Assembly (NCBI GenBank): GCA_965655095.1
Contig: OZ296656.1
Span: 1,798,001 to 1,862,000, forward strand
Direction: 5' to 3'
DNA length: 64,000 nucleotides
Source of the DNA: Haplodiscus bocki
Taxonomy: Eukaryota
Shown: positions 1 to 59,185 of the stretch, piece after piece
Numbering within the stretch: the stretch's first letter is position 1
Layout of the letters: each line of letters starts with the position of its first letter
Notes under the pieces: model-generated
Seen by the model: the letters and a program-made list of their open reading frames with translations, nothing else
What the model was told of the DNA's origin: nothing
Database searches by the model: none
Translations under genes and position numbers: made by a program

Positions 1-2
1 AC

Positions 3-6199: not shown

Positions 6200-6819
6200 C
6201 GAAAAATTCGTCATAACCGTCATTTGTTTCGGCACTTTGGCCAAAAATTTTTTATCGTCAAAAAATTATCTTTCAAGTTATGGAGTCAATTTCACAATGG
6301 AGCCGCTCCAGAGCGCAAACTATGTACTTCAATGTGGGAGCTATGACGAAATGATCGATTTTCGGCATTTTTTTCCAACTTTGATCCGTCATACCTCCAC
6401 ACCTATGACGAGTTGGCAGAAAATTTTTCGCATGCGTATAGGTCACAGTTTATGTGCTTCACACAAAAAGTTTCGGCCAAATGCATGTGGTTACTTGCAA
6501 GGCTGTCGATTAAAAACTGCAAAAAAGGGCCAAAAAACAGAATCATCCCGTCATAATTCCTCAACCATTTTTGCTAGAATGATCTAACCCGCACCATTGT
6601 TCTTAGAATTGTAAAGTATGCCTGCATACAAAGTTTGAACCAAATCGTATGGGTGGGAGCTGATATCGCTATTTCTACACCCCCGTTTCCACAGATGTAA
6701 AACACTAACTACTAAAACGGCTCGGCAAAGGGGCCCCTCCCCCGCCTCGCAAAGGCCTGATATGGGGCAAAAACCCCTGACCACCCAGTGGAGGCAACGG
6801 TGCAATTTACTAGAGGGCG
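6200..6819 (+). repeat. Conserved ~610-bp terminal block, copy 1
   Basis: Starts TCGTCATAACCGTCAT; ends GGGCCCCTCCCCCGCCTCG...GACCACCCAGTGGAGGC...GGCG; five copies in the window. Confidence 0.9.
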
Positions 6820-7169
6820 GGATTTTTTCCATCCAACTTTCTTTTTCTGCATCAATTCTGGTGATTGGTCTGCAATTCTAAATTAAATTGTTGTTGTTAT
6901 AAACTGGAAACTGTGGTTTGTTCTTTTTTACGAATCCTTTCTCCAGGCTCAAGATTAGCTCGCACAACGCAGATTCAACTGCTTTGTGCACGGTTTGTTT
7001 CACACCGTAAATGTAGCTATGTTCTGCAAAACCTATGAAAGTTTCTTTTTTCTTTTGAAATTCGTGACAGCAGCAACGAAGGATGGCAAACGTACTTTCC
7101 GATCGACTTTTTCCCGAAGTCAGCTCACAACGGTGAAGTAACAAATTCTCCATTTTATCAGCTGCAGAA

Positions 7170-7660
7170 TTAAACTATAACTACACAGACCTACCCCTGA
7201 CCGGCTTCCATATCAATGGACGTCTTCAGTGGAGCTCCTTTCCATTCATTGAATCCAGATTTTTTGAAGAAATCATTTGTTTGCGCAATGAGATGTTCCC
7301 GAAGCATTTTTTGCTGTTTCTGGTTGCCTTTCTTTGTGCTTCAGAGGAACAAAATAGGTGTTATGTGCTATTGCAAATCAGTTTAATTTTTTTGAAACAT
7401 GAAATTGTACATTTAGGAGTTCTGTACTAGAAAAATTCAACAATAGGAAGTTCTGCGCCAAAACCTTTCATCCAATATGTAACTATAATATTCATATCTC
7501 GTCCAAAACATATATAGACCGTTTCATGCTTCCGGAAAATAACCAGATGAGAAAAAGTTACTGGCCACATTCATCATTGAATTGAGACAGTTGTTTTCAT
7601 CAAATTATCGTAAACCAAGTATTATGACAACATGATGACCAACTTGATGACGGATCAGTA
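7170..7660 (-). pseudogene. Decayed tyrosine-recombinase-like catalytic domain (type A 5' region)
   Basis: Manual minus-strand translation across stops and frameshifts: LIRHQVGHHVVIILGL (7658-7611), KHET (HET 7528-7520), LRK (7288-7280), GQ (7202-7197) with TAA nine codons later. The U6 homologue has GH...Y at the same spacing. Confidence 0.45.
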
Positions 7661-10022
7661 CTATGAAGTCGATTGAATATGTACCTTTCATTTATCAAGT
7701 CGTAAAAGTGGTATTTTCATTCTCTACATTTTCAGCTTTTGTCAACATAAAACTTGGTTAATGGAAGCACTTTTAACAATATCTGAAGGTTACGTGTACA
7801 GTTAAAACGCTGCCCCTTCACTCTTGATGTCTTTTTTGAGTGTTTCCGGTTTTAAAGACTTTTTTTCTTTTACATACTGTTCAAAAGTGGTCGCGTTTTT
7901 CACAACCACTTTTATCGGAGTTTTTCGAAAGATCATATTTGATTGGTTCTGACGCATAGATATCGGAGTTTTACACTTTTTCAAATTAACTTTGAAATGT
8001 TGTGTGAAAAAATCTTGTCGTTGTCAGAAAAAATTATCCGCGAACGAGCGATTTATGGGTGTGTTTTATTCCAAGAAGTCTTGACGAAGTTAGTTTTTGG
8101 ATAGTGAATTTTTATATCAAATCATAAATTCTTTAAGGTCAGCTCCACATTGCCAATTTCTCATCCCTCATTGGAACCCTCTGAAGTAGACAGTTTTGGT
8201 ATGTGATTCGATCGTTTGAACTCTTCATCCTGTGAATCCTGACTCACTGAAGTCTCAACTGATAATGGTCGACATCTTTTGATCGCTGTCGATAAATTGT
8301 GCTATTTGTTTCGGGTGATTTACTTTACTGACGTTTTTTTGGACGAACAATGCTGGATAATGCTTGTAGAATCGTTGACTGACTACTAAGTATTGTTCCA
8401 AAATTTCCAATTTACAAGGGGAACTCCACTGTTATCAGCGTACATGAATTGTTATTGTGTTTGATGGAGCATGAGACGCGGGAAAAATTTGAAAAGTATA
8501 CAACATAATCGTAACTTTAAAATCATCCCGATTGATGCCAAAGATGATTGCCGTTGAACGAACAGTGTCAACGGGCTCCTCAAAGCTGAGCGTGTCAATG
8601 GTTTTGCTCCGGAAGAGAAATTGTTTCCATTTATTTTTTACCCGTCTACTGCCTAGAAGCTACAAAGTGTTTACGTGCAAGTTCGCAGACTCACATTACC
8701 TATAGTTTTCTAACAAACTTGACAGTTTGTGCTTCATTTCATCGTGTTTTTACTGATATTGAAAGTTCTTCATGTTTGTGTTGCCTGTGGGTTTCGTTCT
8801 TTTTTCCATGTGTTCAACCATTCAATCGGATTTACCATTTTTGGAAGGAAATTCAGGACCGAATGATCAAAACTGAGATCATATTATCGTTAGTTTTGAC
8901 CACAAAAAATTTGTTTTCCCAACGAAACTGTTTGGATTCGCACGTGTTTTGTAGAGATGTTAGCGAAAAAACATTGCGTGTGGAAAAAAATTATTGACGA
9001 AAACTACTGCTTGAACGTTCATAGCAAACTGTGTGTTATCTTTGGCGTTGAAGTACCACGCGTCTGACTGTGCATCAACTTTGAGACGCACTTGTAAGCA
9101 AACGATTTCTCATTTTGTTCTTTAATTGTTCAAATGAAACTTTGACGAGTTAAAAGTGTAATCATGATTTTTCGCGGGGAGAAGACTGCCCCTCCTTTTT
9201 CTTGTTTCAAAGTTTCAAAAATCCAATCTCTTCTGTCCGATCATGAAATTGAATTTTTTATTTTTAGCAAGTTACATAATCGCCGTCGATATTATAGATC
9301 TAAATTTTATTGATCAACCGCTGCTGCAAGCATTTGTTTTGTCAGCTGACTCACTTGGTTCTGACAGCTTCCATAACCTCCGTTCCATGGAATGATTTTG
9401 GATGCCAGGGTTTTCTGAAGAGAGTGACAGGATTGTGAGAATCTTTCAATCATAGTTACCTAAGTTGTTAGGTTTTTGGGTTTTTTACAGGAAGATTTTT
9501 TTTCCGGAGGGAATTTTCACCTGTTGTCAGACTTCAGTCATAAACTATAGGGCGTAATTTCAGTTTGCCTGATTTAGTAGTTGGCTCTGGGAAAAACTTT
9601 ATTTTTACTCCCTTTCTTTCCTGCTCATTTTTCATGATATGTTATTTTAAGTTAACTAAAGTGATAAAGTGCGCATTTTCTCAAACAGCTTAGGGAATTC
9701 GTATAGGTCGCCTCAACACTCATGCGTTCTCAATTGATTTTTCCAACTCAACATTCTTGGCTTTTAAGAACGATTGTGATGGGCAATGTAGTCTGATCCC
9801 CTCACAATTGGGCAAAAAAAATTGGGAATTAAGCGAACTCGCCGTGTACACAATACTAATTGACGGCAATCCGTAACATCGAGATATGTTCCACTTGTAT
9901 GGGTGAACGGAAAAAAAGTTCATGCATACGATTTTTAAACACGATACAAGAGTCGCAATTAACACTAATTACAACGCCGCCTCTCCGAGTAAAAACCTGT
10001 TTGTTTTCTTTCTCTGATAATT

Positions 10023-10060
10023 GCCTTGGTTTTGCTTCGTTACCTGCGCAAAACCAAGGC
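10023..10060. other. Conserved inverted repeat GCCTTGGTTTTGC-N12-GCAAAACCAAGGC
   Basis: Perfect 13-bp arms (10023-10035, 10048-10060), ~200 bp upstream of the polyprotein ATG. Confidence 0.9.
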
Positions 10061-10256
10061 CCACATTGCATATGTTTTTCTGGATACTGATTTCCGAATT
10101 AATTAGATGCTTCCCTTAATTGAACAGTTTGAAAGCCGAGCAAAACGATGTCATTTTGTACGTTGGTTCTATAATGGCGCCAACTCTTTACAATGTATTC
10201 ACTATTAAAGATGAGTGATTGATAAACTTTTGCGCGAATTTGCTTGTGAAAGAGTA

Positions 10257-13200
10257 ATGCCATCTGGTAAGAGTGATTTTAAAAGACGTCGCTGTGCAAA
10301 ATGTGGACGCTTCAGTGAACGTAATCACTCCTGTCCAAATAACACTGACAATGTTTCTTCTACTAGCGAACCATTAGGAATTTTGTACAGCATACCTGAC
10401 AGTAATTTGCTGGTCTCCTCTGTTGATACCCTGCACTTAGAATCAACGTTGGAAGCGATGGGACTGTCCTGTTCCCCAACAAGCGGCATAATTGTGAATA
10501 AAACTAACATTCGCCTCAGTTCTGTTCAGCCCTCGCAGAGTCTTTCTATAACGGGTGATGGTAATTGTCTTTTCACTGCTCTGGGCGTAGCCGTCGGTTT
10601 ATCTCATGAAAGTGGTCATGATTTGAGGAAACTTATTGTGAGTAACATGGACTCGGTGACTTTTCCGGAAAACAGTTTGCAAACCTCAATCTATTCCGCT
10701 GAGTTCCCCAACCAGAACAAACTTCTCACCAGCCCAACTGTCAACCACTACCTGAAGACATCGCGAATGGCAGAAAATGGAGTTTTTGGCACTTGTGTGG
10801 AAATTTATACCTTTTGTCAAATTTTTAAATTGGACGTTTATGTATACCACAGTATTTTGAAAAGTTGGCTCGTTTACAAATGCGACTGCTCAAATGACAG
10901 ACAAGGAGTTTTCATTCAACAAACGCGAACCGGAGATCACTTTGAGGTAATTAGTGGCTTGACCGAAACATACCACACTTCATTACTCCTATCAGAAGAT
11001 TTTGCTGGTTCGAGTAGTCAATGTGGAAATTCAGCAATGAATACTCAATGCCCCGGAATCCAGAAGACAGCACTTGCAGCACTTGATGAAACTGAGCCCT
11101 TGCAGAAGCGCAGACGGACTTCAGATTATCCAGTCGCCAATTATTTGATCGAGAATGGAGAAATTAAAACAACTTTGACAACTTTTTGTTTGGCCGAAGC
11201 TCTTTGTGCTGGAGGAAATACTACAACGCAAAGTAAAGGCCCTCCTCCAACTGCTCTGCAACATCGACAACATCAATTTCACAGATTGCCTGGGGACGAG
11301 TTAACTGATGAGATTTTTTTGAAATTAACTGAAAACTTTGTACCATCATCGAAACTACCTGAAGAATCAACCGTTGAAATTGAGTCAAAATTGGTTGTGA
11401 CAGATACCGTCAATGGCGCTGACATTTGTTGCAAGTGCATGCGGGAAGCCACGGTTTATTTTCCACTGGACATTAAGGCCTACAGCAATGCTGGATTGGT
11501 TAATAGAAAGTTCGGTAGGAAGCTGAAAAACGAAGTTGTACATCTGTGTTGTTCCTGTTACAGCTATTGTACTGCACCAAAGGTTGACTGGCAAATGGCT
11601 TGGCCAGCTGTTTTTTTCACGCTCCTTTCTGATACTTCCAAGACAGAAGCTTGTTTAGTCGCTATTTGCTCGTTGTTACCGCTGGAAATAAGGCAACATT
11701 GGCTGGGGGTAATAACCCTTTTCCCTATCTGCATCCAGTGTGTTTTAAATCGGCCGCGTATTCTTGGCACATGTACTGTTGATGGAACACGGAGATTGGA
11801 ACGTTTCGAGCAATTAATGAAAACAATGAGACAAAAAGAAATGGCTGAAGCTTTGGACTCTGAACCGTATCCAAACATACGTTGCCCTTTTGGTTGTTGG
11901 ACGTTTATCGAAGATCCCGGGTACATACCAGCACAGCATTTTATAAACTTGATAGACAGAACTTTCACATCATTCCAAGCGTCTGCATTCAAGAAACTCA
12001 GAGGCGCTAGACTCGACTTCCTGTGTCCTTTGATGTGCTTAGAGACGTTTCTAGTGGCTGCCACAGTGCGGTTACATGAGAAAGAAGGTTTGGTTGTGCA
12101 AACTTGTTCTGCGCATGACAGGGGATGTGCGTTACAGTTCTTGCATCCCCCCAGGCATCCGGAGCTGGGACGAATTCCAACTTTGTTTGAGGAACGATTA
12201 GCTATTGCATCACCTTCATTGTCGTGTGTGAGTAGCTTAAAGGCTAATTATGCTAGCCACACCTACCAACTGTTTCGGAGCGTTGGGTCTTATAGTGGTA
12301 TGAGTACTGTTTCGTTGAGACGTAAACGGCGTTGGAACATCACTAGCAATCGTTTGTTCCAAGCTGAAAGAACCGCCACGTTTTTCAGGTCAGATATTCC
12401 CATTTTAATTAGACAATGGGTTGTTCAAGGTAAAGTGATTGAAGATGTCGCCACTGATCTCTCTCAATATCAGCCGAAAAATGAAAAATTGATGGAGCAT
12501 GTCGGCGTAGATCTTGACACCTGCATTCGATTGACGAAGGTGATGGACAAAAACGAACAAGAACTTTTGAGTAATGTGAAATTTCTACAGTGCTACGCTT
12601 TGGCTCAACCAAACAATGAACATGGTTGCTCACCTCCTCCTCTGATCAATGATACTGGAGATACACTCTGGTTTCTTCAAGCGGCATGCTGCATATCTCC
12701 AATTTTATGTTCATCCATGGTGTCTGGCGTTAATCACGTTTTGGCAAAAAATATGTTTTCACTGTTGCGTCATACATTTGCTCGGTTTGGAAAAGAAAGC
12801 AAGTTGCAGCGTATTTCAGAAGCTCAAGCTGACATTGACAGTATATTGAATAACGCGGCAACTAACAATGACAACCCAATCCTAATTTCAAACTTTTTGC
12901 AGGCGGGTGGCGTGGTGTTGCACGCATTATGTGCTGACTTATGCCATCTGCAGTTGAGCCAAAGAATAGAATTGACTGAGAAAATTCTGCGCGACGTAAA
13001 AGTGGATACGAAACACGTGATTGCTACAACAACTGATGTAAACAATCTGAGGAACAAGGTCAACCCACCTCTCAACATCGTCCTATTTGATGTCCAATTT
13101 GAGCTTGTGGGATGTGGTTGCGGTTCTCGGGGTACAGATGCTGTAATTTTGCTTCGGCATGGTGGTCGCTTCTGCAATTTTTGGCGTATACTCAAAGCTA

Positions 13201-16200
13201 ACAAGTTTGCTGAACCTTTGTTGGACTCACCTGAGACCTTAGTAGAAAAAATTCTACGAGGCTACTGGACGTTTTTAATCTACCGAGGAACTAACTCTAA
13301 AAAGGTGTCGACTGTAAAGTGGCACTATCTCAGTAATTTAACCGGCCAAGGGGTTTTCATTTGTGATAAACATGATGTTCCGTTAACAAAGGACTTCCGA
13401 CGTAGTAACTACTTCTGTCGATGTGGAAGGTCATCATTCCTCAGATGTGCCTACTCAAAGTGCAACAGTTGTGTGTGTAAGAAACACTTCGACGAGGGAA
13501 TGAAACATCCGAACTTACGAGTTTTAGTTGCACCTCTAGCAGAACGAAAATTAACGCCTGAAGTACCGAACGCTGAAGCTGCAATCAATCCCACACAGTG
13601 TGAACTGAATTCCAACATAGCTAGTGTATGTGATGAGGACAAAAGCTTTGTTGAACCAGATTTATCCACCAACTGTTTAAGTCAAAACTCAAGTTCATCG
13701 GTAGCTTCTTTTCTGTGCAACAACATGAACGCAAACTCGATCAGCGAAAGTCAATTGGCCATGAATAAATTGAACGTTTGTTCGGGTGAAAGGGCCATTG
13801 TTGCTGTACAAGAGGCTTCCAGAGAAGAAGATTACAATATTCCTCTCCACATACTGTTGAATTCACGATGCAACTTACTGCACAGGAAAAGAAGTCATCC
13901 CATTTCCCTAACCGTTAAAGAGAAACGTTTTATGGAAAACATAACAGCTTCCTCAACATCATCAACGCCTTTGCTTCAACCGGAAGGGCTGCTTTTTCCT
14001 ACTATTTTCTGGTCCCAAAGTTTCGATGGCAGCATTGAAGGTGCAATTCCAATATCCCTGTTCCAATCCGAAAAATACAACAAACAAGTGGGGTTTGCAG
14101 GTTTAGAAAACATGCTGCGAACTCGCATCACTGATGGGTCACTTTTAACCTCCAGTCACGCATCATATCTGCAGTTCGTTTTTGATTGTCTTCTTAATTT
14201 ACAACTGAGTAAAACCGATATTCGGATTGTGTTGAACAGAGGCTGGCAGGAATTGGGCAGTAAGCCTACAAATTACCAGTACTACTCCGCTGAAACGTTC
14301 AAGTTCGATTGTGAAGAATCCCGGAAAAATGTCTGTGAAGTAGCAGCACTTATTAGAGATAAAAACCCCACTTATTTTGTTACATACACATGTGGGCAAT
14401 CTACTCACCCCGGCTTGCGCAAAATTTTCGAGGCTATTGACAAACTTTACCCGCCCGATATGACATCCAAAGAATTGAGATTATCTGTAATACAAAGTGA
14501 ATTAATGCCTATGCTTAGATGTTGGCATCGCGCCTCACAGTATGTAATGCAATGGTTGAAGTGTTCGGCCGAGCAACCTCTGGGACCAGTCTCCCACTTA
14601 TGGATGAGGTACGAGTGGCAAGATGAAACTTCGGCCTTTCCACACATCCATGCACTAGTGTGTACAGGAGAAAACAAGTTTGGTCCGGAAGTTCAATCCC
14701 GAGTCTGCTGTTCTAAAGAAACATTCATGGGCGCCTTGAACGATTGTTGTCCAGCGTTATCGGATAGCGAACGGTTCCGGTTGGGAGAACTTTTCCAAAA
14801 ATACCAACGGCACGATTGTGGCAAGGGCAAAAATAGATGTAAAAAGAAAACTGATTGGTTGGGAAAGCCAGTGTGTAGAGTACCTAAATATCCTGCATCC
14901 GTTGGGTTCTCTTACAAGCAAATACAACCTAATTACTCGGAAGAAACTTGGGACTTGTTGAGAGCCATGAAATTGTCCTATATTGACCCTAACTCTTCAA
15001 CAGACAAAGCTGAGGAAGAACTGAAAGCTGGAAAGCATCACTACCCTGCTGCTTACAACGAGCACATTTCACCAACAAATGCAGCTTTGTTTGCCTTCAC
15101 TGAAAGTAGTACGAACGTCCAAATTTGTGACGACGAAATGTGTTCACGCTACGTTGCAAAGTATGCTGCCGGCGTGGAAGGTCGGGCGTTCACAAAAATA
15201 GTAGCGTCTGCTGGTGAGGATGAAGTGAAAGTCCAAACGGAACCTATTGTGAACGAAAAAATAGCTGGTGTCCAAACCAGCGTTACCAAAAAACGTCGGG
15301 ATGATGATAAACGGAAATCTGTAACAGGAAGAATTGTTAGCATAACTGAATGCTTGTGGTGGGCTTTGCAGTTGCCATACGTTTGCACAAACGTAGATTT
15401 CATTCATGTACCAACAGTTCCGAAAGAGTTCAGATCTGGAATAGTGATAGAAAAACAAATTGCGAGGACGATGAACTTCAGTGCTGTTTTTGCCGAAGCT
15501 GTTCGAATTCGGAAAAACGTTTTGAAGCTTCCAAAACATCGACAATTAACAAGAAATCAAGAATTGTTGTTGGCAGATGTCGAAGCAAGTTCGATTACGC
15601 CTGACAAAGTGACTATTTTTGGCCTTAGACCACCGGAACTTTTGTTTGTCAGCAGTTTGAAAAGTTATTTTAGTTGGTTCGTTAGATTCAAAATCAACAG
15701 CTCGAAAGGGAAAAGTAGTCATGAGATTTTGTTGAGCCGTGCATCGTGTAATGACTTTTGGGTTGATTGTCTTGGATACGCTATCAAGATACGCCCACCC
15801 GCAATTTCTGATTTTCTTGATTTTTGTTCAACGAGAAGTGATAACCGGAGAGACGAAGTTTTGAAACAGGAGTGCCGCAAACATGTTCTCCCCAAATTGC
15901 AAGGAACCAACAGTTGCCCCAGACTGGTGGCGTACAATCATTGTTTTTCAGATCAAAAAGCCATAGTGGTTTTCACAAATACTCTACCCAGTAGTCCAAC
16001 AAAGTTCTTGTTGCATTTTGTGCTAACTTTTGGTTCGTTTGACACCGAACTTGACATTCTCGCAGTTTCCTCTCTCAGGGAATCTTTTATAGCTGCCAAA
16101 CTGGTGGAGCGTAACAACATTACTGTTGCAGTCGTGCTTCAACTAGCTCGCCGCTATCTATTGCAACAGCTCCGCTTTGTGCCGGGATCCTCTAAACTCA

Positions 16201-18356: not shown

Positions 18357-19264
18357 TACGTTAGAAAACACTGGCAAACTACATTTCAACAGCTTCGCCG
18401 ACTGTCAAATGTGACGAAGTGAATGCCTTATCCCATAAAAAACATAAAGTTCATAATTTAATCAATACATAAAGTTTTTTTTAAACGTCCATCTATAGTA
18501 TATATTCATTTGTCTCCGGTGGTTTCCAAAGCTGCACGTGTAAAGTTTTTAGTCTGTGTGTTTTTGCTTTTCGCTGTGGTTAAAGATATTTTTGTGAAAG
18601 TTTTTTCTTTTACTATTAACAACAATTCAATTGTTCAATTTTTGATGTCTTTGAGAGTAGTCTGCAGACTATTTAGCCTACGTACTGTTTTCCAAAGGTT
18701 TCGTTGTTTAAGTTAGTTAAACATAAAACTATCCGACAATATTCCTTTGCGGACAAGACTTTGCTGCAATTTGAACCTGATTTTTGGAACGTTAAAAGGG
18801 AGCATCAGGTGTTCATGATTTGCCCCTTAACAATGAACGTTCCTGATTGCCCACCGTATTTAAAGTTGATTGATTAGTGATTTTAACTTTTTGCACTGCT
18901 TTTTTCCCATATGCTTATGGTACGCTTTGTTTTGTGTATGTCTTAATAACGATGTACACCTACATAGTGTATGATAAAAGCCCTGTACTCCTTCCTGTTT
19001 CGACCGCAAGGTGGAACACTTGGTAAAACGTTAGTGAAACTTCTATACCAAAAACCAGACACACTCAAATGAGCAAATTTATATTTAGAGGTTTTTGGAA
19101 CGATGTTTTTTTCAGCTCTTCCGTTTTATACTATTATATAATATAATGCCAATGACAGTTATCTTCTGTGTTCCATCGTAGTGTACCTATGCTGTTGGAG
19201 TCATTAAATGTCGTTTTTTTGTCGTCACCCCTTGTCGTTGTTTTTCAACGTTCTGCAGATCTAA

Positions 19265-20021
19265 ATGAAACATCTTATCATAGCTGATTCCCTTGGGAGA
19301 AGACTTGTCATGAAGCACGAAGACCTGGAAGTGAAGTTTTTCCCTGGAGCCACGGCATCTTGCCGTCGGGTAATTGAGTGTTTAAGAAACCTAACAACGT
19401 TTTATGAATCAATCATTTTGTTCATCGGGGGAAATGGACTTACAGGCCGGGGCACACGACGGGGAAAGACTCCTGAGCAAGTGAGTAATTTCAACACAAT
19501 ATCAAGTTGGTTGCGACTGAAAACATTTTAGAATTAGACTGGTTGCAACATCAGGGTGCATTGTGTATGAATTGATCCGCAGGTGATATTTCCCTGCGAA
19601 AATAATTTCCAATTATTAAGCAGAGCTTCAAATGCAACTGAAAATATTTTTTTCCTCCAAATTTTGAAGAAAGTTCAACAAAATCAAACGAAGTGCATGT
19701 TCAGCTCAAAAATTTTTTGTTAACTCTTAGGTGGTTCAAGACATTATGTACCTCGTGCGTCTGGCCATTCCAAAGTGTTACACAGTATACTGTCTGGCTC
19801 TGGTCATGAGATCCAAACCTTGCCTCTTAGATATCAAAAGGGTTAACGATGGACTCAGAAACTCTGTGGGTCAATACAATTTTGTGTCGGTGGCTAGCAA
19901 AATGAGCTCCGAAAGGAATTTGATGGATGGCGTGCATTTATCTCGTCACGGTGTTTCAAACTTGATGTACATTCTAAGGAAAAGAGTTTTGGGTACTGTA
20001 CTACCTTTTTCTGACCTGTGA
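19265..20021 (+). CDS. SGNH/GDSL-type hydrolase, 2 exons (19265-19480, 19731-20021), 168 aa
   Basis: Block I ADSL, block II PG, block III GGNG, block V DGVH. Phase-0 intron GTGAGT...TTAG (19481-19730), same position in U3 and U4. Confidence 0.88.
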
Positions 20022-23714: not shown

Positions 23715-23789
23715 TGAGGTTTGAATCGGTGTTTCTTTCGTGTTCAGATTTATTTTCTGCGACAAACGGGCGTAGTCCTGTCATTGTGC

Positions 23790-43988: not shown

Positions 43989-44026
43989 GCCTTGGTTTTG
44001 CTCCATTCCGTTCGCAAAACCAAGGC
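43989..44026. other. Conserved 13-bp inverted repeat, 12-nt spacer
   Basis: GCCTTGGTTTTGC-tccattccgttc-GCAAAACCAAGGC. Confidence 0.9.
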
Positions 44027-44287
44027 GCCTGGTTTATGAATGGTTGGAAACGAATTATGATTTTTTACCGTACTGGCTTATCTTTTCCGCTGCATCGACC
44101 CTTAAAATTAACTAGACAGGCAACGGTTTGTAATCGAACCTCAAAAGACTTTGCTCAAACGACAATTTGATGTATTTACCTGCTATACGAATTTGCCTGC
44201 AATTTATTCAACGTGTGGTTGTATTGTAACTTTTTGTTCTTTCATATAGTTATGATCCCATTGAACTAATGTCTGTTGTGTTTGACA

Positions 44288-47200: not shown

Positions 47201-50200
47201 AAATTTGCCAAAAAAACAGAAGGTTCCCCGACTGATAACTTGGAAACTTTAATTCGGGGATATTGGACAATTGCGATTTATCAAATATCGAGAAATGTTG
47301 AATTGATTGATTTGAAGTGGAAATTTCTGAGCACTTTGACCGGTCAGGGTATTTTTATTTGTGGACATCACACAATTCCTTTAACCAGAGACTTCAGGAA
47401 GAGTGGTTTCCAATGTAGATGTCGTCGTGCATCGTTTTTGCGCTGCCCGCATTTGCAATGCTACTCTTGCGTTTGCAAGCGTCACTTCAATGAAGGTCTA
47501 CAGCAGCAACACAGACGTATTTTAATTGATTCAGTACCGTTGGAGAACTTAAATAAAACGAATTCCCCTTCTATAGTATCGGAATCATCTTCCTCACGGG
47601 ATTTTATTGATCCCAACATCATCTCTGCAACTGAACCAATTCAACCAGATGCGGCAACAGAAACGTTTGAGATTGCATCAAGCAACAGTTCTTCTGTCAG
47701 TTTTATTCTTCATCCGGAAAGAAATAACGAGGAATTCGAAGATGACAACGTGAGAATAATGGCAACATTAAAAACCAACCCTGATGAAAAACTGATTTCC
47801 GTGGATCATGAACGAAAAGAAGATGCTTTCAAACTACCGCTCCATATTCTTTTAAACTCACAATGCAATCTTCTTTATCGACGTAACGTGAATCCAATCA
47901 GCCTTTCCCTGAAAGAAAAACGTTTCCTTGAAAATATTTCAGCTACTTCGACGTCTGCATTACCGCTCATTCAGCCCGAAGCTCTTCTTTTCCCATCGAT
48001 TTTTTGGTGTCAAGCTAGCAGCGGCAGTTTTCAAGGAGCAATACCAACTGCTTTATACAATTCATCCAAGTACAACAAACAGCTGGGTTTCGCTGGTTTG
48101 GATGACATGCTTCGAACTCGAATCAAAGACGGTTCTCTTTTGACATCTTGCAATCCTACTTATTTGCAGTATGTGTTTGATTGCCTGTTGAACATGCAGC
48201 TTCATAAAAGTGACATTAGGCTAATACTAAATCGAGGATGGCAAGAAGTTAATTCTGCTCCTCGTAATTGCTCATTCGTTTCGACTCAAACTTTCAAGTT
48301 TGATTGTGCGGAAAGTCGAAAAAATGTCTGCGAACTTGCGGCTTTAATTAGAGACAAAAATCCAACCTACTTTGTGACCTACACTTGTAGTCAATCGACG
48401 CACCCGGGGATTCGGAAAATCTTTGAAGCACTGCATGAAATGTATCCCGCAGAAACCACTCCGAAGGAAGTACTTTCAGCAGCAATTCAAGCTGAACTCA
48501 TGCCCATGCTCAGGTCTTGGCACCGCGCCTCTCAATATGTAATGGAATGGGTGAAAAATTCACCAGAAAAACCACTGGGTCCTGTGTCTCATATTTGGAT
48601 GAGGTACGAATGGCAGGAAGAGACAGCTGGCTTTCCTCACTTGCATGCTATTTTGTGCACACCAGAAGATAAATTTAGTGATGATGTACGATCTCGTGTT
48701 TGCTGTTCAAAACAAACGTTTTTGGGTGGCTTAGAAGTCAGTTGCCCCGAATTGGACGCAGTCGAACGTTTCCATCTGGGTGAACTTTACCAAAAGTATC
48801 AAACCCATAACTGTTCCAAAGGTCGTAAACGTTGCCATAAGAAGACAGACAGGATGGAGAAACCAATTTGTCGTGTGCCTAAATATCCTCCTTCGAATTG
48901 TTTTTCTTTCAAGGAAATTCCTGTGAACTTTTCCTGCGAAACAATGGGACTTCTGCGAGAAATGGATTTAGCAGACATAGATGAAAACTCGCTAGTCCCA
49001 AAAGTGAAAGATCCTTTAACCGCCGGAAAACATCATTATCCCACTGTTTCTAACGAACATTATTCACCAACGAACGCTGCTCTTTTTGCTTTGACACAAT
49101 CCAGCACCAATGTTCAAATATGTGACGACTACATGGCCCCCCGCTACGTTGCAAAATATGCAGCCGGCATTGAATCTCGAGCAGTTGCCAAAATTGTCGC
49201 TGGTGAAACAGAAAATAGTGTCAAAGTCTTGACAGAACCAATCGCACATGAAAAAATAGCTGGGGTACAGGCTTCGCTAAAGAAATTGAGAGGCGATGAA
49301 AAACAAAAATCGGTAACTGGTCGTGTTGTCAGCATAACAGAGTGTCTCTGGTGGTCCTTACAACTTCCGTATGTCTGTACAAATGTCGATTTTGTTCACG
49401 TGCCAACTGTTCCCAAAGAATATCGATCTGGAATTGTCACTGAAAAACGATTTAGCAATATTATTAAGTTGGGCGCCACATTCATGGAAGGAATCCGAGT
49501 TCGGAAACACGTTTTACAACTCCCAAAGCACCGGCAGTTCACTAGGACACAAAGTTTTCTTCTCGCAGATGTTGAAAACAGCTCTATTTCGCCAGACAAA
49601 GTAACAGTTTTTGGACTCCGCCCACCTGAACTTTTGTTTGTCTCGAAGTTAAAAAATTACTACAGTTGGTTTGTTCGTTGTAAACCGCAAACAAAAAAAT
49701 CCATCAGCAATCATGAAGTGTTCTTGAAGAGAAGCCTCCGCAGAAGTTGTTGGGTTGATGCATTGGGGTATTTGGTTAAACTACGCCCTTGTTCTGTGGA
49801 CGCTTTTGTAAAATTCTGTCGTGCAAATGGTACCGATGGACGGGATGGGATTCTGAAACGCGAAATGAGAATACACATTGTTCCGTTGCTTGTGACGAAA
49901 AACGCGTCACAATTTGTTGCTCAGTGGAAGCAGTTGTCCGAAGAAAATGCCGTGGTTGTTTTCAGTAACATTTTGCCGAATAACCCAACTAAATTTCTAC
50001 TACATTTGCTCTTGACTAATGGAGAATTCGACACAGAGATGGACATTCTGAACGTGCAATCTTTCAGAGAAGCTTTCACAACAGCTAAAATTATTCCAAG
50101 CTGCAACATAAACGCTAAAACCGTGCAAAATTTAACACGAAATTATTTGCTGGAACAACTGCGTTTTGTACCTGGGTCCTCGAAACTAATTGACAAATAC

Positions 50201-52343
50201 CTTTTAATGGCTCACAGTGTTCTTTCGGAGGCTCTGTTAGTAAACAGCCTTTATTTCGCTGCTGCGCTACCGCCTGTGCTGGACAGAAGTGTCATTGAAG
50301 AATACGAAGAAACACTAGCAGTGCAAATCAGTATGGAAAAATGCAAAATGGTAGCTTTTCTTCACACTTGTCAGAAACAATTACCTACTGAGCAGGCGAT
50401 GCTGGATGCAACCATCACCGTCCCTTTACTTTGGAAACCAGTCATTCAGAAAAGCCCGGATCAATGTGGAAACTCTTATACGGAACAGAAGCGTGTATTA
50501 GACAAACTGTTGAGTTCCATCGACATTTATAAAGAAGGACTCTGCAATTTCATCAGGCATCAAATTGTCTTTGGACCTCCAGGAAGTGGGAAAACGTTCG
50601 TTGTGCTGAAATCGCTTGCATATGCTTTATGCCAAGGTCTCAACTGTGTAGTGACATCTTTGGCTGCTGAAAGATCTGCCGCTTTGGCTGGAAAACATCT
50701 GAATGCCCTCATCCCATTTCCAGTGGAAAAGCATGCTTCTGCAGAAACGCTCTCCAGAACAGCCCTTTCCAACTTACAGCGATCTCCTATTAAGTGCCGC
50801 TTTCTGCAAAATCTACACGTTCTTTTCGTGGAAGAATTGTCAATGATTTCTAGCGAACTTTGGGCTGCAACAGATTATGTGCTTCAGGTTATCACAGCAA
50901 ATTATGTTCCATTCGGTGGGAAACTTGTTATTGCAACCGGAGATTTCTTCCAACTTCCTCCACCATCAGGATCTTGTTTGATGAGTTCTTCTTTTCCTCT
51001 CACAACTTTCACTTTTCTCAAACTGGAAAATTTCGTTCGGATGCAAAACAAAAATGGCCAAGAACTGTTGTCTTTGTTGTCAGCGACTCCAAAAACTGAC
51101 GGCAATGCGAGGCGTATCTGGGAAATAATCGATAAAGGTTGCAATTTTGTCCATTCATGGAAAGACGTACCGAATGACAGAATTCGAATTTTTGCCACTC
51201 GACAAGCAGAACGTAAAGCAACTGAAAACAAAATAATGGATGTTAAAAACAGCGGTACGCAATTTTATGAAAATGCGGCAGTTGATGAAATGTGTGTTTC
51301 AAGCACTGACAACTGGACCGAGGCGTCGCCAAGTACATCAAAATTTCTCAACAAAAAGTGTCTTGAACCCCAGTCGTTGTTTCTGTACCCCGGTGCCATT
51401 TTACGACTAACAGTGAACATGCCATCTATATCCGCGTATCAGGGTCAACTCTGTGTTCTACTTTCTTTGGATACAATTGAGAATGGCTCTGTGACAATTG
51501 CTCTAGCACCAGCTGGTTGCCGAAGTATTCCACCGCTTGCTGTGATCAAAAACAAATGGCGTTGTGTTGTTATCAGCAAAGAAACTGGTGTTACCCACCG
51601 ATTAAACCACAAAACGGTTTGCAGACGAATCCAATTTCCACTAAAATTATTTGTTGCGTCAACCATTCATAAGACAATGGGTGAAACGCTTCCGATGGTC
51701 GCAACCCAAATAGTTGGATCGAAAGATTTCGCTTTGTGGCTTCCCGAACAACTCTATATTGTAATGAGTCGAGTAAGAAGTCTGAATCAGGTGACTTTTG
51801 TTGGATCGAAAGAATCTAACAAACGAGCAGTTTTGAATTTAGTCTGCAAAAAATCGCAATGGGCTGCTCACGAATGAAATTTTGACTAAAAGTTCCGCTG
51901 GTGACCCTACAATTGATCATGCAAGAGCATCTCCCTTTCCCCCTTCAATGAGAGAACTACCCGTTCAAAATCTGGGGTTCTGTTACTTGCTCCAAAGTGA
52001 ACCACAGCAGCACCTTCTGTACATTGGCTCCACTATGTCGTTAGTGCGTCGTTTGCGAGAGCACAATGCAGGACTGGGTTCCGCCTTCACCAAAGTACAA
52101 AATCGCTTGCCCTGGATGGTTTGTGCTTATGTTACTGGTTTCAATTGGACTAATGCTTCAGAGAGAATCCGAGCATTCGAGAAGGTGTGGCTGAATGCGG
52201 TATCACACTACGTCAACGCAAAAAAGAAAAATGTGTCACTTCCCACAGCTATCAATTTGGGGGAAATTGTGGCAAAAAATTGGCTACACAAAGAAGATGA
52301 TTTGAAACTAGTAGTGTGCTGCAGGTCATCACTTGTGTCTTGA
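44288..52343 (+). pseudogene. Rep-helicase-GIY-YIG polyprotein with one frameshift before the nuclease domain
   Basis: Open from ATG 44288 to 51877. A 2-bp deletion near 51866 (gctgaactc in U3 vs gctgctc here) separates the GIY-YIG segment 51882-52343. Confidence 0.9.
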
Positions 52344-52920
52344 AAAGTCGTACTTTAGGAGAAAGCCGCTCAAAAACTTATGGATTAGTTTCGGATAATT
52401 GTTTTACTTGCTCACAAACTTCCTTGCCTTGACAGCGATACGCATCGACTGCATAGTGGTGCATTGGTGAACTTCGCTTTATGTTATGCTGCAACCGCAT
52501 CGGCTGCAGAGTGATGTACCAAGTAGCACGTGCAACAACATGAACCTTTTTGCTGGAAACGATAATGCTTCGACTGCATAGTGTTGCATTATCTATTTTG
52601 CAGTTGAGATGATTTGTTGCTAATTACTTGTATGTGTCTGTTTAATTCATTAGCTTGAGGGGATTGACTTTCACTGAACCTGATCTGATGGACTTTAATA
52701 TTCCAAGCACTAGAAACAGTCCATTTAAAAATGCGCCGTTAATTTTGGACAATAGAAATTAGGTTACTTTCAAGTTTTTTTGAAAAACAATTATAATCAT
52801 ACGTTAACTGACAAATTTTGACATTGTTGATTGAGGCACTCTTGTTACTGTATCCCCGTATTCGGGGATGATACCTGAAGCTGCAGAAACCGACGTTTTT
52901 CACAGTGCTTCCAGATCATT

Positions 52921-53794
52921 ATGGCTCATTTGATCATAACCGACTCTCTGGGCGTACAACTGGAAGGTGTGCTTGAAAGTTTGGCAGTTAAAAGTTTTCC
53001 TGGCGCCAGAGCGGCGGACCAACGTGTAACGAGTTTCCTGGAAAATTTGCGGCGCCGCTTTCAATCCATTACAATTTTCATTGGAGGGAATGGCCTTTCC
53101 AATTGGGGCCGGCGTCCAGCTGAAACTCCAGAACAGGTAAAGCTTAAGTGATGTTTCATGGGGTTACTGTTTGCAAAATCAAATTAGACGACAGTAAAAT
53201 TTGAAATGTTTTTGTGTTTTGTCAAATCCTTTATTGAAATACGTTAGTAAAAGTCTAGGAAAACGTTGTTTTCAATTCTGCGTCTTTCTACTGGTGCTTT
53301 AACTAGTGCTACGTGCAAACTATTTTTGAACCGTTACTTTGGGTTTTTAATATCTCAGCAGTACTTCATTTGTTTTCCCTTTTTTCCTGTTGTTTTATTA
53401 TTAGGTGTTCCTTGATATCTTGAACCTTGTGAGAATTGCCGAGAGAAAATGCGACAAAGTATACTGCCTGGGCTTAGTAATGCGAAGCCAACCGTGCTTC
53501 CTTGCAGTGAAAGAAATAAACCGAATGCTGCGAACATCCATTGGACACTACACTTACGTATCCGTGTCATCTAAAATGTCATCTGAAAGAAATCTTAAAG
53601 ACGGAGTGCATTTGTCTCAGCACGGCGTGACCAACATCCTGTGGATTATAAAAAGACGGATTTTAGGTAACAAATGTGTACAGCAGTACATTAGAATGTT
53701 GAAAAACAGTATTGATTCCAGTAATTTGCGCTTGATATCAACTTTCCAGCAATTGAATGTTTCTAGCTCTAAACTCTTTGGAATTTATCTATAG
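52921..53794 (+). CDS. SGNH/GDSL-type hydrolase, 2 exons (52921-53136, 53405-53794), C-terminus extended
   Basis: Same motifs and intron as U3; the U3 stop TAG is CAG here, adding 37 codons. Confidence 0.85.
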
Positions 53795-55109
53795 AAGGGT
53801 TACGTTTTTTCCATAAACTTCCATTCTAACACCAATGTTGTTTAGGACTCTCCCATCGCAAAAACCGCTACGTGCACTGGAAATGGTGAAGATCTGGCCG
53901 TGAGTTGTTCTAGGCTTCAATTGCAAGTTTCTTGAAAATGGTATTACAATCTTGGTCGTTGCACCTATGTTTCGAATACTCTTGGTAGTTTTTTCATGAT
54001 AACACAATTTAGAAATTTTATTGGTGCTACCATTAAAAACAAACAAAGGTGCTTTTTTGATTTCGAATAATCTTGGCTAATTGACGCTGCTAGGACAGTG
54101 TTTTAATTTTTTTTTCGTGTCGCTTTCGATTTGTAATTTGTTACTGATTAAATTGTAAAAGAGTTCGACCGCATGGTGGCCTCTACTTCTTTGGAGTTTT
54201 GAAAATTTTTTGTTCCATACACCTTGCATTTTGGCGTACATTAAAACATGTTTATTATTTTAAACTTTGTCTTCGTGCCTCATTCAATTTAAAGTTGGTT
54301 TGTGATGACGCTGTAAAGAGTTCAACCGCATGGTGATCTGTACGTCTTTGAAGTTTTGATGCTTCGTTGTCATTGGAACAATTTTGTGATGGTCGCCGTC
54401 CGCTATGAGTCGTCACAAGTCCTTCATGTTTTCGCTGAAATAGTGTACTCCATAGTTACATTGTTTGTTAAAAACTTTTGTTATTTTAAATTTTTGAGGG
54501 TGATCAACTAACCTTGGCCATACTCTTAGAAGGATTGTTCATATTTTTTTGAATAAAATTTTCTTTCGAAATGTTTGTTCTTGTCCGCGCAAAAAACGTT
54601 ATAGCAAACATTGTGCAGGTTTGAGCTCGTATTAAACTTCAGTTGTGGAACATCTGCAATGAAAATATAATTTATAATGCTTAACTTTCTACAAGTTTTG
54701 TGGACAAAAAAAACCGATGTAATAACGGTGTATTCGAGTGCATTGATCACCAATTTTTTTCTATTGCCTTGAGTGTTACTGATCGATAAAGCGTGATGCG
54801 TTGAACAGTAAGCTAACTGTAAATGTAACATAACATTTCTTTGAAATAAACTTAATGATAAAGAAGATTTGAGAACTCTGAATAATTGAGAAACTTGTGA
54901 TTTTTTTTGATAAACAAGTTGCTTTACTTGAAGCAATAGCGCTAATTGACTGTAATAAATGCTTCAAACCGAAATTACTTGCCTGTTGACTTCATTGAAC
55001 CTTATAGGAAAATGCGTTCACAGAATCTTTAAAAAAAGGAAAAAGCATGGTTTTGAATGTTCCAATTTTTCAGTTCTCAGGCAGCTTCAACCACGTTTGA
55101 TTTCAGACT

Positions 55110-56120
55110 ATGACAACTCAAGTGAACACTTCCCAAGTAACAGCACCAAATTTTTTGCGTCGAAGCGAAAATACGTTCGTCAGAGGTATCGTTCTAGTTA
55201 TTAAGAAATACGACAAACCTTTGCAGTTGTTTAGACCGCAAAATATCAAAAACAAGAGAGGTGCCCTCGATACCAGTTATGATCGATTAGTCATACTAGG
55301 CGAGATCAATTCAAAAGAATGCTTTGCTGTGATTGCGGAGTCTGCACAGAAAAGCTATTTTTTGTTCGGAGACACTCTGTTAACGGTAGGGTCAATTGTG
55401 GACGTAAAAGAACCTGTATTCTCGAATTCTTGTCTCGGCAATGACCGCAGTAATCCAATTTTCCATGTCTTTCTTCCTTTGGAAGTCGTGGTTAACAGTA
55501 TTCCATTGTTGCCAATTCCCATAGATCTCCACCCATCAACGACAGCAATGTTTCACTTTTGCTTGCCAAACAGACCCCTCACCTTCTTACAAGCAGGTGC
55601 TGTGGCTCCAACTTGCTCAGGCTTCATGTGTGACAGACGAGAAAAACGAATTGACTCTGTATGCCCCTGTATACAGAAATCTCCTGTTTCAGCTTGGGTA
55701 ATGTGCGCCCGAATTGTCAGTCGTGACATCGAAAATGAAGACGAAGACTCCCTCACGGGAGAAATAATACAAAGTCTTAACCTTACAAAAATGTTTTGCA
55801 GCGAAGCAATTATTAGAAGTTCATACGCATCAATCGATTCGCAACAACTGCGGAATGCTGTTAACCAGGTGTCACAATTTGTAAATGAGAATGGAGGGTG
55901 GCAGGTATGTGGATTTTACAAAAGTGGATCCACAGACGAAAATCTTGCACAAAACGTACAACGTGTCCGCATTTGCAAAATTACGCCTGCCGTTGAAGTG
56001 CCTTTTAATTTGAAATACAACATTGTGCCATGCAACGCCAATATTGGCAATGAGCCCCCAGCTTTGCAACATGCGAATGCTAACGTCGGTGCTCCTAACA
56101 ATCCGAACAACGTACGATAG
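55110..56120 (+). CDS. ORF3, conserved hypothetical 336-aa protein
   Basis: Intact frame, nearly identical to the U3 copy. Confidence 0.88.
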   Translation: MTTQVNTSQVTAPNFLRRSENTFVRGIVLVIKKYDKPLQLFRPQNIKNKRGALDTSYDRLVILGEINSKECFAVIAESAQKSYFLFGDTLLTVGSIVDVKEPVFSNSCLGNDRSNPIFHVFLPLEVVVNSIPLLPIPIDLHPSTTAMFHFCLPNRPLTFLQAGAVAPTCSGFMCDRREKRIDSVCPCIQKSPVSAWVMCARIVSRDIENEDEDSLTGEIIQSLNLTKMFCSEAIIRSSYASIDSQQLRNAVNQVSQFVNENGGWQVCGFYKSGSTDENLAQNVQRVRICKITPAVEVPFNLKYNIVPCNANIGNEPPALQHANANVGAPNNPNNVR

Positions 56121-57174
56121 CTGATCTAGACTTACTCCTCAGAGGACCGTTCTTTCTCCACCGCATCAGCTGCTTGCAGGCTTTCAAAACCAATCTCTCC
56201 TTTCGCAATCGACCGCAAGGTGGTTGCTGAAAAAAACTTGCACAAATTAACAAGTTTCGGAAAAAAAGTCAACTGATAAAGTTGTCCTCGTTCTTTCAAA
56301 CCAAAATTTGTTCTCCTCCTTTTCAATCTTGAAACCTATCGTTCAATTTTTTTGTTTATGACAAAGTTTAAATTTCCAGTACTTATCAGTACCCAAAGGT
56401 TAATTGTTGGTTTTTGTAGAACTGTAAACACTAATGTCAAAATAGTTGTTGTTGAACAATGGAAATTAGTTTGCAACTGCCGACGACTTGTCTCTGTGAA
56501 CATATGTTTTTCAGTAGCTCAGAACATTGTGGTAATTCGTGTTGCTTTTGAATGTGGATTGTTGGTTCGTGTAGAAGTTGTGAACTTTTTATCTTATGCA
56601 ATTAACTTCTTGTTATGTTAAACATTACTATCCCTTCATCACCGAACGTTGTGAACTTTGAAACAATGTCTTGCTATTCTATTGGGCTCAGTGCACACTC
56701 TCAGTTTGTTGCTTGACGTTTGATGCAGTGAACGCTTTGCAAAACAGGGAAAAGGAATAAAACTAGAAAGTGTTCTAATTTTCGCCAACAGAAGAATGGG
56801 AACAAACTTTCATACGAAATTTTAAGGAAGTTTTTTTCTGAAGTCTATACAGGTTCATTTGCTTCATTCAGGTTGTTTTCACAAAGTAAAATCTGGGATC
56901 CTACTGCCTACAAATTGACAACATTGGTGCGCAAGTTTTTTGAGAAAGTTAAAACACTTTCGAGGGTCAAATTTTGAAAGTACTCGTTTGGAAAAAAATT
57001 TTAAGTTTTCTTCCCAGAAACTCATCCAACTTGAAGTTGTTTGTTAAAAGAACGGTTGCTTTCAATGAATTGCAGGCAAAAATTCCTGCCGACGTTCGCC
57101 ATGCGCCTGTTTAAGTGTCATAATCAAATTCTGCGCCAAATTTTGATTTTTTGTTTTTTTTTATGGTTTTTTTT

Positions 57175-57790
57175 GAAAAGTTCGTCATAACCGTCATTTC
57201 TTTCGGCAAAGTGGCCGAAAATTTTTCATCTTCGGAAAATTGCCTTTCAAGTTATGGAGTCGATTTCATACTGGAGCCACTCCAGAGGGCAAACTATGCA
57301 CTTCAATGTGGGAGCTATGACGAAATGGTCGATTTTCGGCATTTTTTTCCAAATTTGATCCGTCATATCTCAACACCTATGACAAGTTCGTGGATAATTT
57401 TTTGCATGTGTGTAGCCCTTAGTTATTCTGCTTCACAGGAAAAGTTTCGGCCAAATGCATGTGGTTACTTGCAGGGCTGTCGGTAAAAAACTGCAAAATG
57501 AGGCCAAAAAACAGAATCATCCCGTCATAATTCCCCAACCATTTTTGCTAGAATGATCTAACTTGGACCATTGTTCTTAGAATTGAAAGTTATGTCCGCA
57601 TGCAAAGTTTGATCAAAATCGTATGGGTGGGAGCTGAGATCGCTAATTCCCTATACCGTTTGTGCATATTTGTTTTTTCTTATATTTTAACGCGAGGCAA
57701 AGGGGCCCCTCCCCCGCCTCGCAAAGACTAATGTGGGGCGCGATCCCCTGACCACCCAGTGGAGGCACCGGTGAAAATCACCAGGTGGCG
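57175..57790 (+). repeat. Conserved terminal block, copy 4
   Basis: Ends TCACCAGGTGGCG at 57790. Confidence 0.9.
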
Positions 57791-57952
57791 GTCACTGGAG
57801 AAGCACCTCTGAAATATGAAATATTACTCATAGTCTTTTCTTCGAACACAGTAATGAGTTTTGCAAATGCCTGTTTAATACATTGAAATTGAGCCTGTGA
57901 AATCTTCATTGAAATCGACAGGACATCGAAGACGAAGCTTGCAAAAAGTTCG

Positions 57953-58001
57953 GCCCCGTTGTTTCTCCGTGTCGCTTCGCTAATCTACGAAACAACGGGG
58001 C
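57953..58001. other. Inverted repeat GCCCCGTTGTTTC-N23-GAAACAACGGGGC
   Basis: Perfect 13-bp arms at 57953-57965 and 57989-58001. Confidence 0.85.
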
Positions 58002-58220
58002 GGGGCAATTAACAATTTGAATTTCCAAAAAAAATTTTTCAATTTAGGGCCAAATTATGATTGTTTTTCCAGAAAGTTTCAATACTTCAACCCACAAAAA
58101 AAATTAAATTTCAAAAAAACTACGGAGTAGGAAAATTTTGGGGAAAAAGTGGACAAAACAATTGCCAGATATGAATTCTACAATCAAAACTGAGTTTTTA
58201 GAAAATTTTAATTTTTTTTT

Positions 58221-58837
58221 CGAAAATTTCGTCATAACCGTCATTTCTTTCGGCAAAGTGGCCGAAAATTTTTCATCTTCGAAAACTTGCCTTTCAAGCT
58301 ATGGACTCGATTTCATACTGGAGCCACTCCAGAGGGCAAACTATGCACTTCAATGTGGGAGCTATGACGAAATGGTCGATTTTCGGCATTTTTTACCAAC
58401 TTTCATCCGTCATATCTCCACACCTATGACGAGTTGGTAGAAATTTTTTTGCAAGCATGTAGCCCTTAGTTATTCTGCTTCACACGAAAAGTTTCGGCCA
58501 AATGCATGACGTTACTTGCAGGGCTGTCGGTAAAAAACTGCAAAATGAGGCCAAAAAACAGAATCATCCCGTCATAACTCCCCAACCATTTTTGCTAGAA
58601 TGATCTAACTTGCACCATTGTTCTTAGAATTGAAAGTTATGTCCGCATGCAATGTTTGATCCCAATCGTATGGGTGGGAGCTGAGATCGCAAATTCCCTA
58701 TACCGTATGTGCGTATTTGTTATTTCCTATATTTTAACGCGAGGCAAAGGGGCCCCTCCCCCGCCTCGCGAGGACCTATGTGGGGCGCAATCCCCTGACC
58801 ACCCAGTGGAGGCGACGGTGAAAATTACCAGAAGGCG
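58221..58837 (+). repeat. Conserved terminal block, copy 5
   Basis: Ends TTACCAGAAGGCG at 58837. Confidence 0.9.
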
Positions 58838-59185
58838 GGATTTTTTGCATCCAATTTTTTTGCTGCATCATTTCTGGTGATTGGTTCTTTTTTCTAAAGG
58901 GTTGTTTTTATAAAAGGAAACTGTTGTTTTTTTATTTACGATACCTTACTCCAGGCTGAAGAATAGCTCACACGACGCGGTACAACTGATACATGGATAC
59001 ATGGACAGTTTGTCTCACACCGTAAGATTGCGTTTTTTCCGCAAAACGTATAGTTTTGTAGACTTTTTAAAAGTTGACAACAGCAGCAATGAAGGATGGC
59101 AAACATACTTTCTGGTCGATTTTTACACAAACTCAGGTCAAAACGGCGCTAATGTAACAAATTTTTAAAGTTGTCAGCTGCAGAA

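Follow-up and report, generated by a model that had tools for sequence, protein, structure and literature searches.

The 64,000-nucleotide window analysed here (G000:C9:1798001-1862000, in the 1.5 Gb genome of Haplodiscus bocki) consists of a head-to-tail array of Helitron-like transposons: part of a unit U1, the units U2, U3 and U4, the 1,047-bp unit N5, and the start of U6. The array runs from C9:1721876 to C9:1875696 and meets host DNA at both ends by the rule set out below. We consider it probable that these are Helitron-type units spanning NAG to CACC, that their transposase RepHel nicks CACC^NAG (^, the cut) to start, to stop and to insert, and that monomers were added singly at the ends of resident units.

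From the array ends in host DNA, a unit extends from NAG as far as CACC, and its insertion site is AYC^NAG. With a 3'-end pattern anchored on the upstream hairpin and restricted to ends without a following C (n = 57), all 57 ends read GAC and then CACC (54), CCCC (2) or CACG (1). Thirty of these ends were fetched, and all 30 continue N-A-G, the AG being no part of the pattern; what follows matches known units in 16, another family's start motif in 3 and non-element DNA in 11. From the other side, a pattern anchored on the start and restricted to starts without G at −7 (n = 14) found 4 starts behind family ends and 10 behind host DNA. The latter all begin CAG and are preceded by CACC (4), AATC (3), GACC (2) or CACG (1). 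Five further host-side starts are preceded by AACC or CATC, and in one unrelated family that starts with TAG all 13 non-family left flanks end in YC, 10 of them in AYC. The host target consensus is AYC^NAG, with CACC^NAG as its best form, a 7-base site. Host flanks are non-repetitive or dispersed-repeat DNA, and four single insertions with both flanks show no target duplication.

Among 282 units, the starts are CA (159), TA (121) or AA (2) and the ends CACC (275), CCCC (6) or CACG (1), such ends being required by the unit caller itself. Likewise, all 293 end-plus-start junctions detected in 727 kb are of the CACC^NAG type that their detector required. The position of the switch is further demonstrated by the information carried by each column in 140 junctions, whose upstream and downstream flanks were clustered without the zone under test, with shuffle correction. 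In variable columns from +11 to +34, information on the downstream unit reaches 1.19 bits and that on the upstream one no more than 0.22, whereas columns −30 to −8 hold 0.10-1.64 bits on the upstream unit and at most 0.28 on the downstream one. In a leave-one-out comparison of 169 junctions, the stretch +11..+30 was the same as in the nearest neighbour for 148 when neighbours were chosen by downstream sequence, and for 42 when they were chosen by upstream sequence. At a young three-unit array, loose read ends in four public runs (at most 2 samples, from 1 study) also switch at the core.

Every end carries a GC stem around the loop NCCCTN, 40-54 nt from the cut. The fourth pair of this hairpin is Watson-Crick in 14 of 15 end classes (5.4 expected; 0/5000 shuffles), with pairing counted on anchored positions. 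The start of N5 (57757-57800) folds on an inverted repeat of its own to give a long hairpin (z −3.4 for 57687-57810); the other starts tested fold no better than shuffles. Units ending in GACCCCC (C9:1875696, C3:3249108, C3:94460433 and C7:44518359) close two arrays and form two of the four singletons. This end occurs in only 5 of the 293 internal junctions and may be a poorer target. At C9:19012485 (L131), a unit end is joined, at CCC^TAG, to the interior of a TAG-family unit (about +229). This join may be a 5'-truncated copy or the use of a cryptic site, and may bear on which end is the terminator.

The arrays, which lie on at least nine contigs, are shared by different families. Units with CAG starts are interleaved with TAG-start families, both autonomous (12-13 kb) and non-autonomous (1.25, 1.43 and 2.1 kb). 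Transposase identity between interleaved families is 31-68%; the TAG families are 31-33% identical to U2 and a 15-kb CAG family 48% in the Rep. In the TAG families and this 15-kb CAG family, the open reading frames (ORFs) are opposite to the junction direction. For the CAG families, 273 of 283 starts lie behind a unit end, a count that by pattern design misses host starts with G at −7. In one TAG family a family end precedes 281 of 294 starts, and YC precedes all of the 13 others (261 of the 294 have G at −7, the first 100 of the 261 being listed). In these two counts together, about 96% of starts sit behind another unit's end. Bare CACCNAG occurs some 200-250 times per Mb, a background that includes about 7 real junctions and overlapping loci. 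Since starts lie mostly behind ends while bare sites are this frequent, resident ends are favoured, and we infer a preference of orders of magnitude per site.

The order of the units is a mosaic. Within the 282 units, a unit's own start predicts its own end in 255/263 and its neighbour's end in 110/201. In 32 of the 221 adjacent pairs a CAG family meets a TAG family, with only about 10 nt of shared sequence. Neighbours in 71 adjacent short pairs of the same class have a median identity of 0.91 and are identical in 3 pairs; for 55, a distant array contains a closer copy (median 0.97). The rarity of identical neighbours favours one-by-one insertion over concatemers or unequal crossing-over. No polarity of growth was detected between first and last units (4 and 11 units, P 0.43). 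The same junctions, including a TAG end followed by a CAG start, recur in three metagenome contigs (L212, L213 and L226), which argues against misassembly. Of 51 metagenome matches to the core, 47 show no hairpin and no start motif, and no relative was found in viral contigs. The 322,919-bp contig C23 has junction matches from 41,590 to 319,641 and may be almost wholly array.

Thirteen ORFs of the window were scanned for domain families. RepHel of U2 has OTU, PIF1 and GIY-YIG in one frame, along with Helitron_like_N at 27 bits, a score under the cut-off. The helicase is fused downstream of the Rep in the same ORF (PF05970, E 9e-12), and SLX1 is closest to the GIY-YIG domain among solved structures (E 4.5e-6). 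The Rep model, with a predicted local distance difference test (pLDDT) score of 82, has the Helraiser structure 7LCC as its top match (Foldseek E 7.7e-7) and its sole strong one (Z 16.5, 343 residues aligned, root-mean-square deviation 4.6). Helraiser was missed when the Rep region was compared with PDB sequences, both by sequence and by profile, and emerged from fold comparison alone. The motifs H-x-H and Y-x3-Y are conserved, and both tyrosines are invariant in ungapped rows (47/47 and 46/46). As modelled, the array protein is a Helitron RepHel with predicted OTU and SLX1-like GIY-YIG domains.

A profile search returned 372 cluster representatives at E <1e-30. Among the best 150 of these, the spacing between EFQ and HxH is 7-9 residues in every one of the 113 HUH motifs matched, 4 of which have RG, and of the 70 proteins whose helicase is complete, 61 have a GIY-like domain. 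The corresponding spacing in HLE1- and HLE2-like elements from this genome is five residues, with RG. About 50 of 147 Helitron_like_N matches lie in open frames of at least 2,300 aa. In an unrooted Rep tree of 50 of 59 rows (one wrong-frame row and eight database rows without a motif match were dropped), a 100/99 branch sets array and database proteins to one side; the tree carries a long-branch warning, and its few references are from this genome. ORF2 is conserved across families and has no Pfam match and no PDB sequence match. Its model is weak (pLDDT 44; best Foldseek E 5e-3), so the weakly predicted OB-fold-like, RPA/POT1-like identity is only a lead. By a rough count, U3 and U4 differ in RepHel by 0.037 nonsynonymous (dN) and 0.117 synonymous (dS) substitutions per site, and in ORF2 by dN 0.009 and dS 0.088.

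We propose a cycle built on the boundaries, the target, the lack of duplication, the mosaic order, the non-identical neighbours and the domains, all observed, with the nicking chemistry taken by analogy from Helraiser (PMC4778049) and IS91 (PMC13181058). RepHel would nick at CACC^NAG and displace one strand, and a second cut would fall at the far CACC^NAG, past the hairpin. The single-stranded circle would be closed CACC-to-NAG, its joint being equal to an array junction, and would be transferred into another CACC^NAG, with strand transfer by the two catalytic tyrosines. Both unit ends supply half of the target, so each insertion leaves two usable sites; because units start CAG or TAG, end CACC and lack a target duplication, every junction is a new target. 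A resident terminus would be recognised like a donor end, probably via the subterminal hairpin plus GACCACC, giving junctions their bias over bare 7-mers. The SLX1-like nuclease might, as a guess, trim flaps or branched intermediates.

Several observations weigh against this proposal. The fetched regions were chosen for array density, not at random. After one TAG-family end the sequence reads AAAG in place of NAG, and folding of the whole junction is significant in only 1 of 6 stretches. In nine paralogs of one host site the flanks adjoin in 7, with 5-9 extra bases, the paralogs being only 70-75% identical and too diverged for base-level reading. An empty allele was not seen, as the four public runs all carry the young three-unit array, and no circle was seen in these runs, where the short-read junction of a circle is the same as an array junction. 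Like neighbours are in excess (111/221 against 82 in a within-stretch shuffle, 0/1000), and some local amplification or family preference exists. Three of the 282 units are chimeric, their breakpoints lying elsewhere than at junctions, and a further two contain internal indels. The 7-mer by itself cannot account for the bias, which could be inflated by the survival of insertions in a harmless site. A search for empty sites found one host left flank to be unique and another to lie within an old repeat.

The excess of like neighbours and the occurrence of one-family runs are what would be expected if the arrays were rolling-circle concatemers, formed by read-through of the terminator and shuffled later by recombination, and tandem Helitrons elsewhere have been attributed to circle amplification (PMC5148889). 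We regard this origin as unlikely, though the best placed of the alternatives, since identical neighbours are rare and families that are unrelated and have inverted ORFs succeed one another at exact junctions. It is also conceivable that the 7-mer is sufficient, and that arrays reflect the survival of harmless insertions or local chromatin, with no recognition of termini. Host sites do fit the loose AYC^NAG, and the four singletons are old (0.885-0.906 to the nearest copy in the fetched set). Against this, 12 long units contain 5 internal same-strand CACCNAG, equally harmless, at which no insertion was seen; together with the proportion of starts behind an end, this makes sufficiency of the 7-mer improbable.

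Homologous or unequal crossing-over in the end block of about 600 bp, or between a circle and a resident copy, could build a mosaic, as the block is common to units at 65-93% and the three chimeric units exist. The preliminary description of this stretch had itself raised unequal crossing-over in a 610-bp block. This does not explain the pattern: the pairing of start and end within units is kept, CAG/TAG joins share too little sequence, and the switch is sharp at the core. We give such recombination a very small chance as the builder of the arrays.

The same description had taken GGCG for the nick or crossover site, a reading that can hardly be upheld: the motif is present in all five window junctions and two long families diverge right after it, perhaps recording one old tip exchange, but array ends in host DNA break 34 nt before it, +11..+30 follows the downstream and not the upstream unit, and 43 of 159 CAG starts lack GGCG at that position. 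Its five junction strings are present where it placed them, and head-to-tail joining and the reassortment of ends and starts are confirmed. The statement that bases before GGCG covary with the upstream unit fails, and the column information and the leave-one-out result together make the inferred crossover at GGCG wrong; the true site lies 34 nt upstream of the proposed break. GGCG was taken for the boundary because the first 34 nt are common to the 17.0-kb and 14.7-kb families. It is a conserved internal motif of some starts, outside the crossover, found at +31..+34 in 116 of 159 CAG-type starts and missing from +26..+40 in 89 of 123 TAG/AAG-type starts. The 17-nt core before each GGCG has 269 exact copies in the genome, compared with 0 for a reversed control; 261 of these were tabulated with flanks, on 9 contigs. 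The idea of self-targeting is supported by the sequences at CACC^NAG, and with it a fixed short site, the lack of duplication, addition at existing junctions and an IS91-like logic, on a larger scale than that description had it. The conserved stretch that ends in GGCG (TYRCYAGRDGGCG, window 6807-6819, +22..+34 of CAG starts) presumably resembles a CTCF-binding motif, and this likeness may be the reason for its conservation.

Features of the window (positions are those of the window; unit coordinates are relative to the NAG start).
Feature	Position	Strand	Remarks
U1	1..6785	+	3' part of ~14.6-kb unit, start upstream of window; RepHel pieces broken
ORF2 of U1	4081-5154	+	own start missing
U1 subterminal GC stem-loop	6730..6743	+	loop NCCCTN; fourth-pair covariation
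Equivalents of this stem-loop	23627-23640, 40658-40671, 57702-57715, 58749-58762
Junction core U1/U2	6779..6795	+	boundary CACC^CAG at 6785/6786
GGCG	6816..6819	+	+31..+34 of downstream unit; internal to unit
Other GGCG at +31..+34	23711-14, 40743-46, 57787-90, 58834-37
U2	6786..23680	+	16,895 bp; RepHel and ORF2 both uninterrupted
U2 RepHel ORF	10257..18356	+	2,713-residue open frame
U2 RepHel domains	OTU ~10554-10853; HUH Rep H-x-H ~14643-14651, Y-x3-Y ~15150-15164		predicted
U2 RepHel domains, C-terminal part	PIF1 helicase from ~16494; SLX1-like GIY-YIG ~17988-18212		predicted
U2 ORF2	21331..22344	+	337 aa; weakly predicted OB-fold single-strand DNA-binding protein (RPA/POT1-like)
Junction core U2/U3	23674..23690	+	boundary 23680/23681
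U3	23681..40712	+	17,032 bp; RepHel 27400-35328 with stop at 33790-33792; ORF2 38101-39111
Junction core U3/U4	40706..40722	+	boundary 40712/40713
U4	40713..57756	+	17,044 bp; 92% identity to U3
U4 ORFs	RepHel 44288-51877; ORF2 55110-56120		GIY-YIG-like tail in different frame, 51843-52343
Junction core U4/N5	57750..57766	+	boundary 57756/57757
N5	57757..58803	+	1,047-bp non-autonomous unit; 5' part its own
Junction core N5/U6	58797..58813	+	boundary 58803/58804
U6	58804..64000	+	start of 14,733-bp unit; RepHel from 61976, leaves window

The 3' part of N5, about 600 bp, is the end common to U3 and U4 (92-93%). In U3 and U4, two imperfect direct repeats of about 100 bp lie between RepHel and ORF2 (37090-37348 and 54101-54359); Tandem Repeats Finder reported no repeats in the window. 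Just outside the array at C9 18.6-19.0 Mb, the loci L132-L133 (C9:19022927-19039181) hold long ORFs (1,462, 467, 348 and 336 aa) that are perhaps another large mobile element. The genome also has Helentron-like elements with DUF6570, AP endonuclease and OTU or UCH (L166, L167 and L171) and HLE1-like elements (L168-L170), which served as controls. Among database relatives, P0006, P0024, P0040, P0055, P0074 and P0096 lie on contigs measuring 11.8-18.0 kb, roughly the length of one unit, as a collapsed tandem or a circle might produce, though this is no more than suggestive. The second-ranked match in the ESM Atlas is a PIF1 plus GIY-YIG cluster of 66 members in which diatoms are the commonest named phylum (4 records), and the clade may reach beyond animals.

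Target choice and entry of Helitron circles are poorly resolved because the known targets are dinucleotides. The array target comprises a 7-nt motif, probably together with a terminal structure, and the ends are exact to the base; with the longer target, exact ends and many open frames, nicking, circle closure and integration are directly testable. The arrays point to a route to kilobase-period tandem arrays besides concatemer replication and unequal crossing-over, and to a safe-haven strategy common to competing transposon families. A site-directed, duplication-free insertion tool is a possible use. Annotation based on known termini (TC/CTRR, or terminal inverted repeats with TT) would miss these elements. 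We did not find terminus-targeted multi-family Helitron arrays described in the literature searched; Repbase, the HELIANO and Paramecium supplements and subscription journals lay outside this search and could contain such elements. Tandem Helitrons, self-insertion and ORF inversion have been published (PMC5148889), as have subtelomeric Helitron-like repeats in a cnidarian (PMC11934779).

The array elements have the Helitron superfamily features of a Y2 HUH Rep, a fused PIF1 helicase, no target duplication and a subterminal hairpin. They resemble Helitron1 (HLE1), represented by Helraiser, in the Y2 HUH Rep with PIF1, the 7LCC fold, the near-end hairpin and the lack of duplication (PMC4778049), and in an RPA-like accessory gene and non-autonomous derivatives (PMC4778049, PMC11417382). 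HLE1 ends are 5'-TC and CTRR-3' and the target is A^T (PMC11417382), whereas the array units read NAG...CACC and use CACC^NAG, space the HUH motif by 7-9 residues without RG, carry a C-terminal GIY-YIG and rebuild the target with both ends. Read on the other strand, an array unit ends in CTR followed by G, which resembles the HLE1 end only in part. The array transposases lie on a separate side of the 100/99 branch, where the HLE1 reference is one lineage of this genome and the tree is unrooted.

HLE2 elements (Helitron2/Helentron) are described with asymmetric terminal inverted repeats of 8-15 bp, a T^T target and DUF6570 or AP endonuclease (PMC11417382, PMC3627910). The likeness to them lies in the OTU domain and in the inverted ORF orientation of some families (PMC3627910, PMC5148889, PMC11417382). 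GIY-YIG is found in one published HLE2 family, HelenSM92 of Sphagnum, with short terminal inverted repeats and TT sites, compared here by description only (PMC11417382). Asymmetric inverted repeats were not detected in 40 start classes (longest inverted match with own end, mean 6.0, against 6.3 across families). The T^T target is absent, the array target being AYC^NAG. DUF6570 and AP endonuclease were found in 3 HLE2-like controls and in none of the 13 window ORFs or 3 array proteins. In the Rep tree, the array transposases stand apart from two HLE2-like lineages of this genome.

The third-clade Helitrons of Paramecium, outside HLE1 and HLE2, are telomere-targeted (PMC13085455). They share with the array elements sequence-directed, oriented insertion, a right end (CCAA after a stem-loop) that resembles the target, and ORFs in either direction; their target is a telomeric repeat and not another element's end (PMC13085455). 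The available main text of that paper does not contain 'GIY', and the comparison is by description only. Insertion into telomeric repeats was not found among the host flanks described above.

IS91 shares Y2 HUH rolling-circle transposition, a tetranucleotide target, a similar tetranucleotide at the cleavage end and the lack of duplication; it differs in being bacterial, in having no fused helicase and in having its target on one side of the nick only (PMC13181058). The available part of PMC13181058 makes no mention of multi-family arrays. The array enzyme is not a stand-alone Y2 transposase, RepHel being fused, and no recombinase family was found among the 13 window ORFs. CTXphi integration at dif regenerates its site and lets different elements stack, using the host XerCD tyrosine recombinases. 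The earlier analogy with CTXphi at dif requires such a recombinase and does not hold for an enzyme that is, as predicted, a Helitron RepHel. On balance, we lean towards the view that an undescribed deep Helitron clade, with a re-spaced HUH motif, an SLX1-like GIY-YIG and hundreds of database clusters, made its own termini the target, and that communal landing arrays serve families with as little as 31% protein identity together with their non-autonomous satellites, as a eukaryotic counterpart, driven by HUH enzymes, of cassette arrays that regenerate their site.

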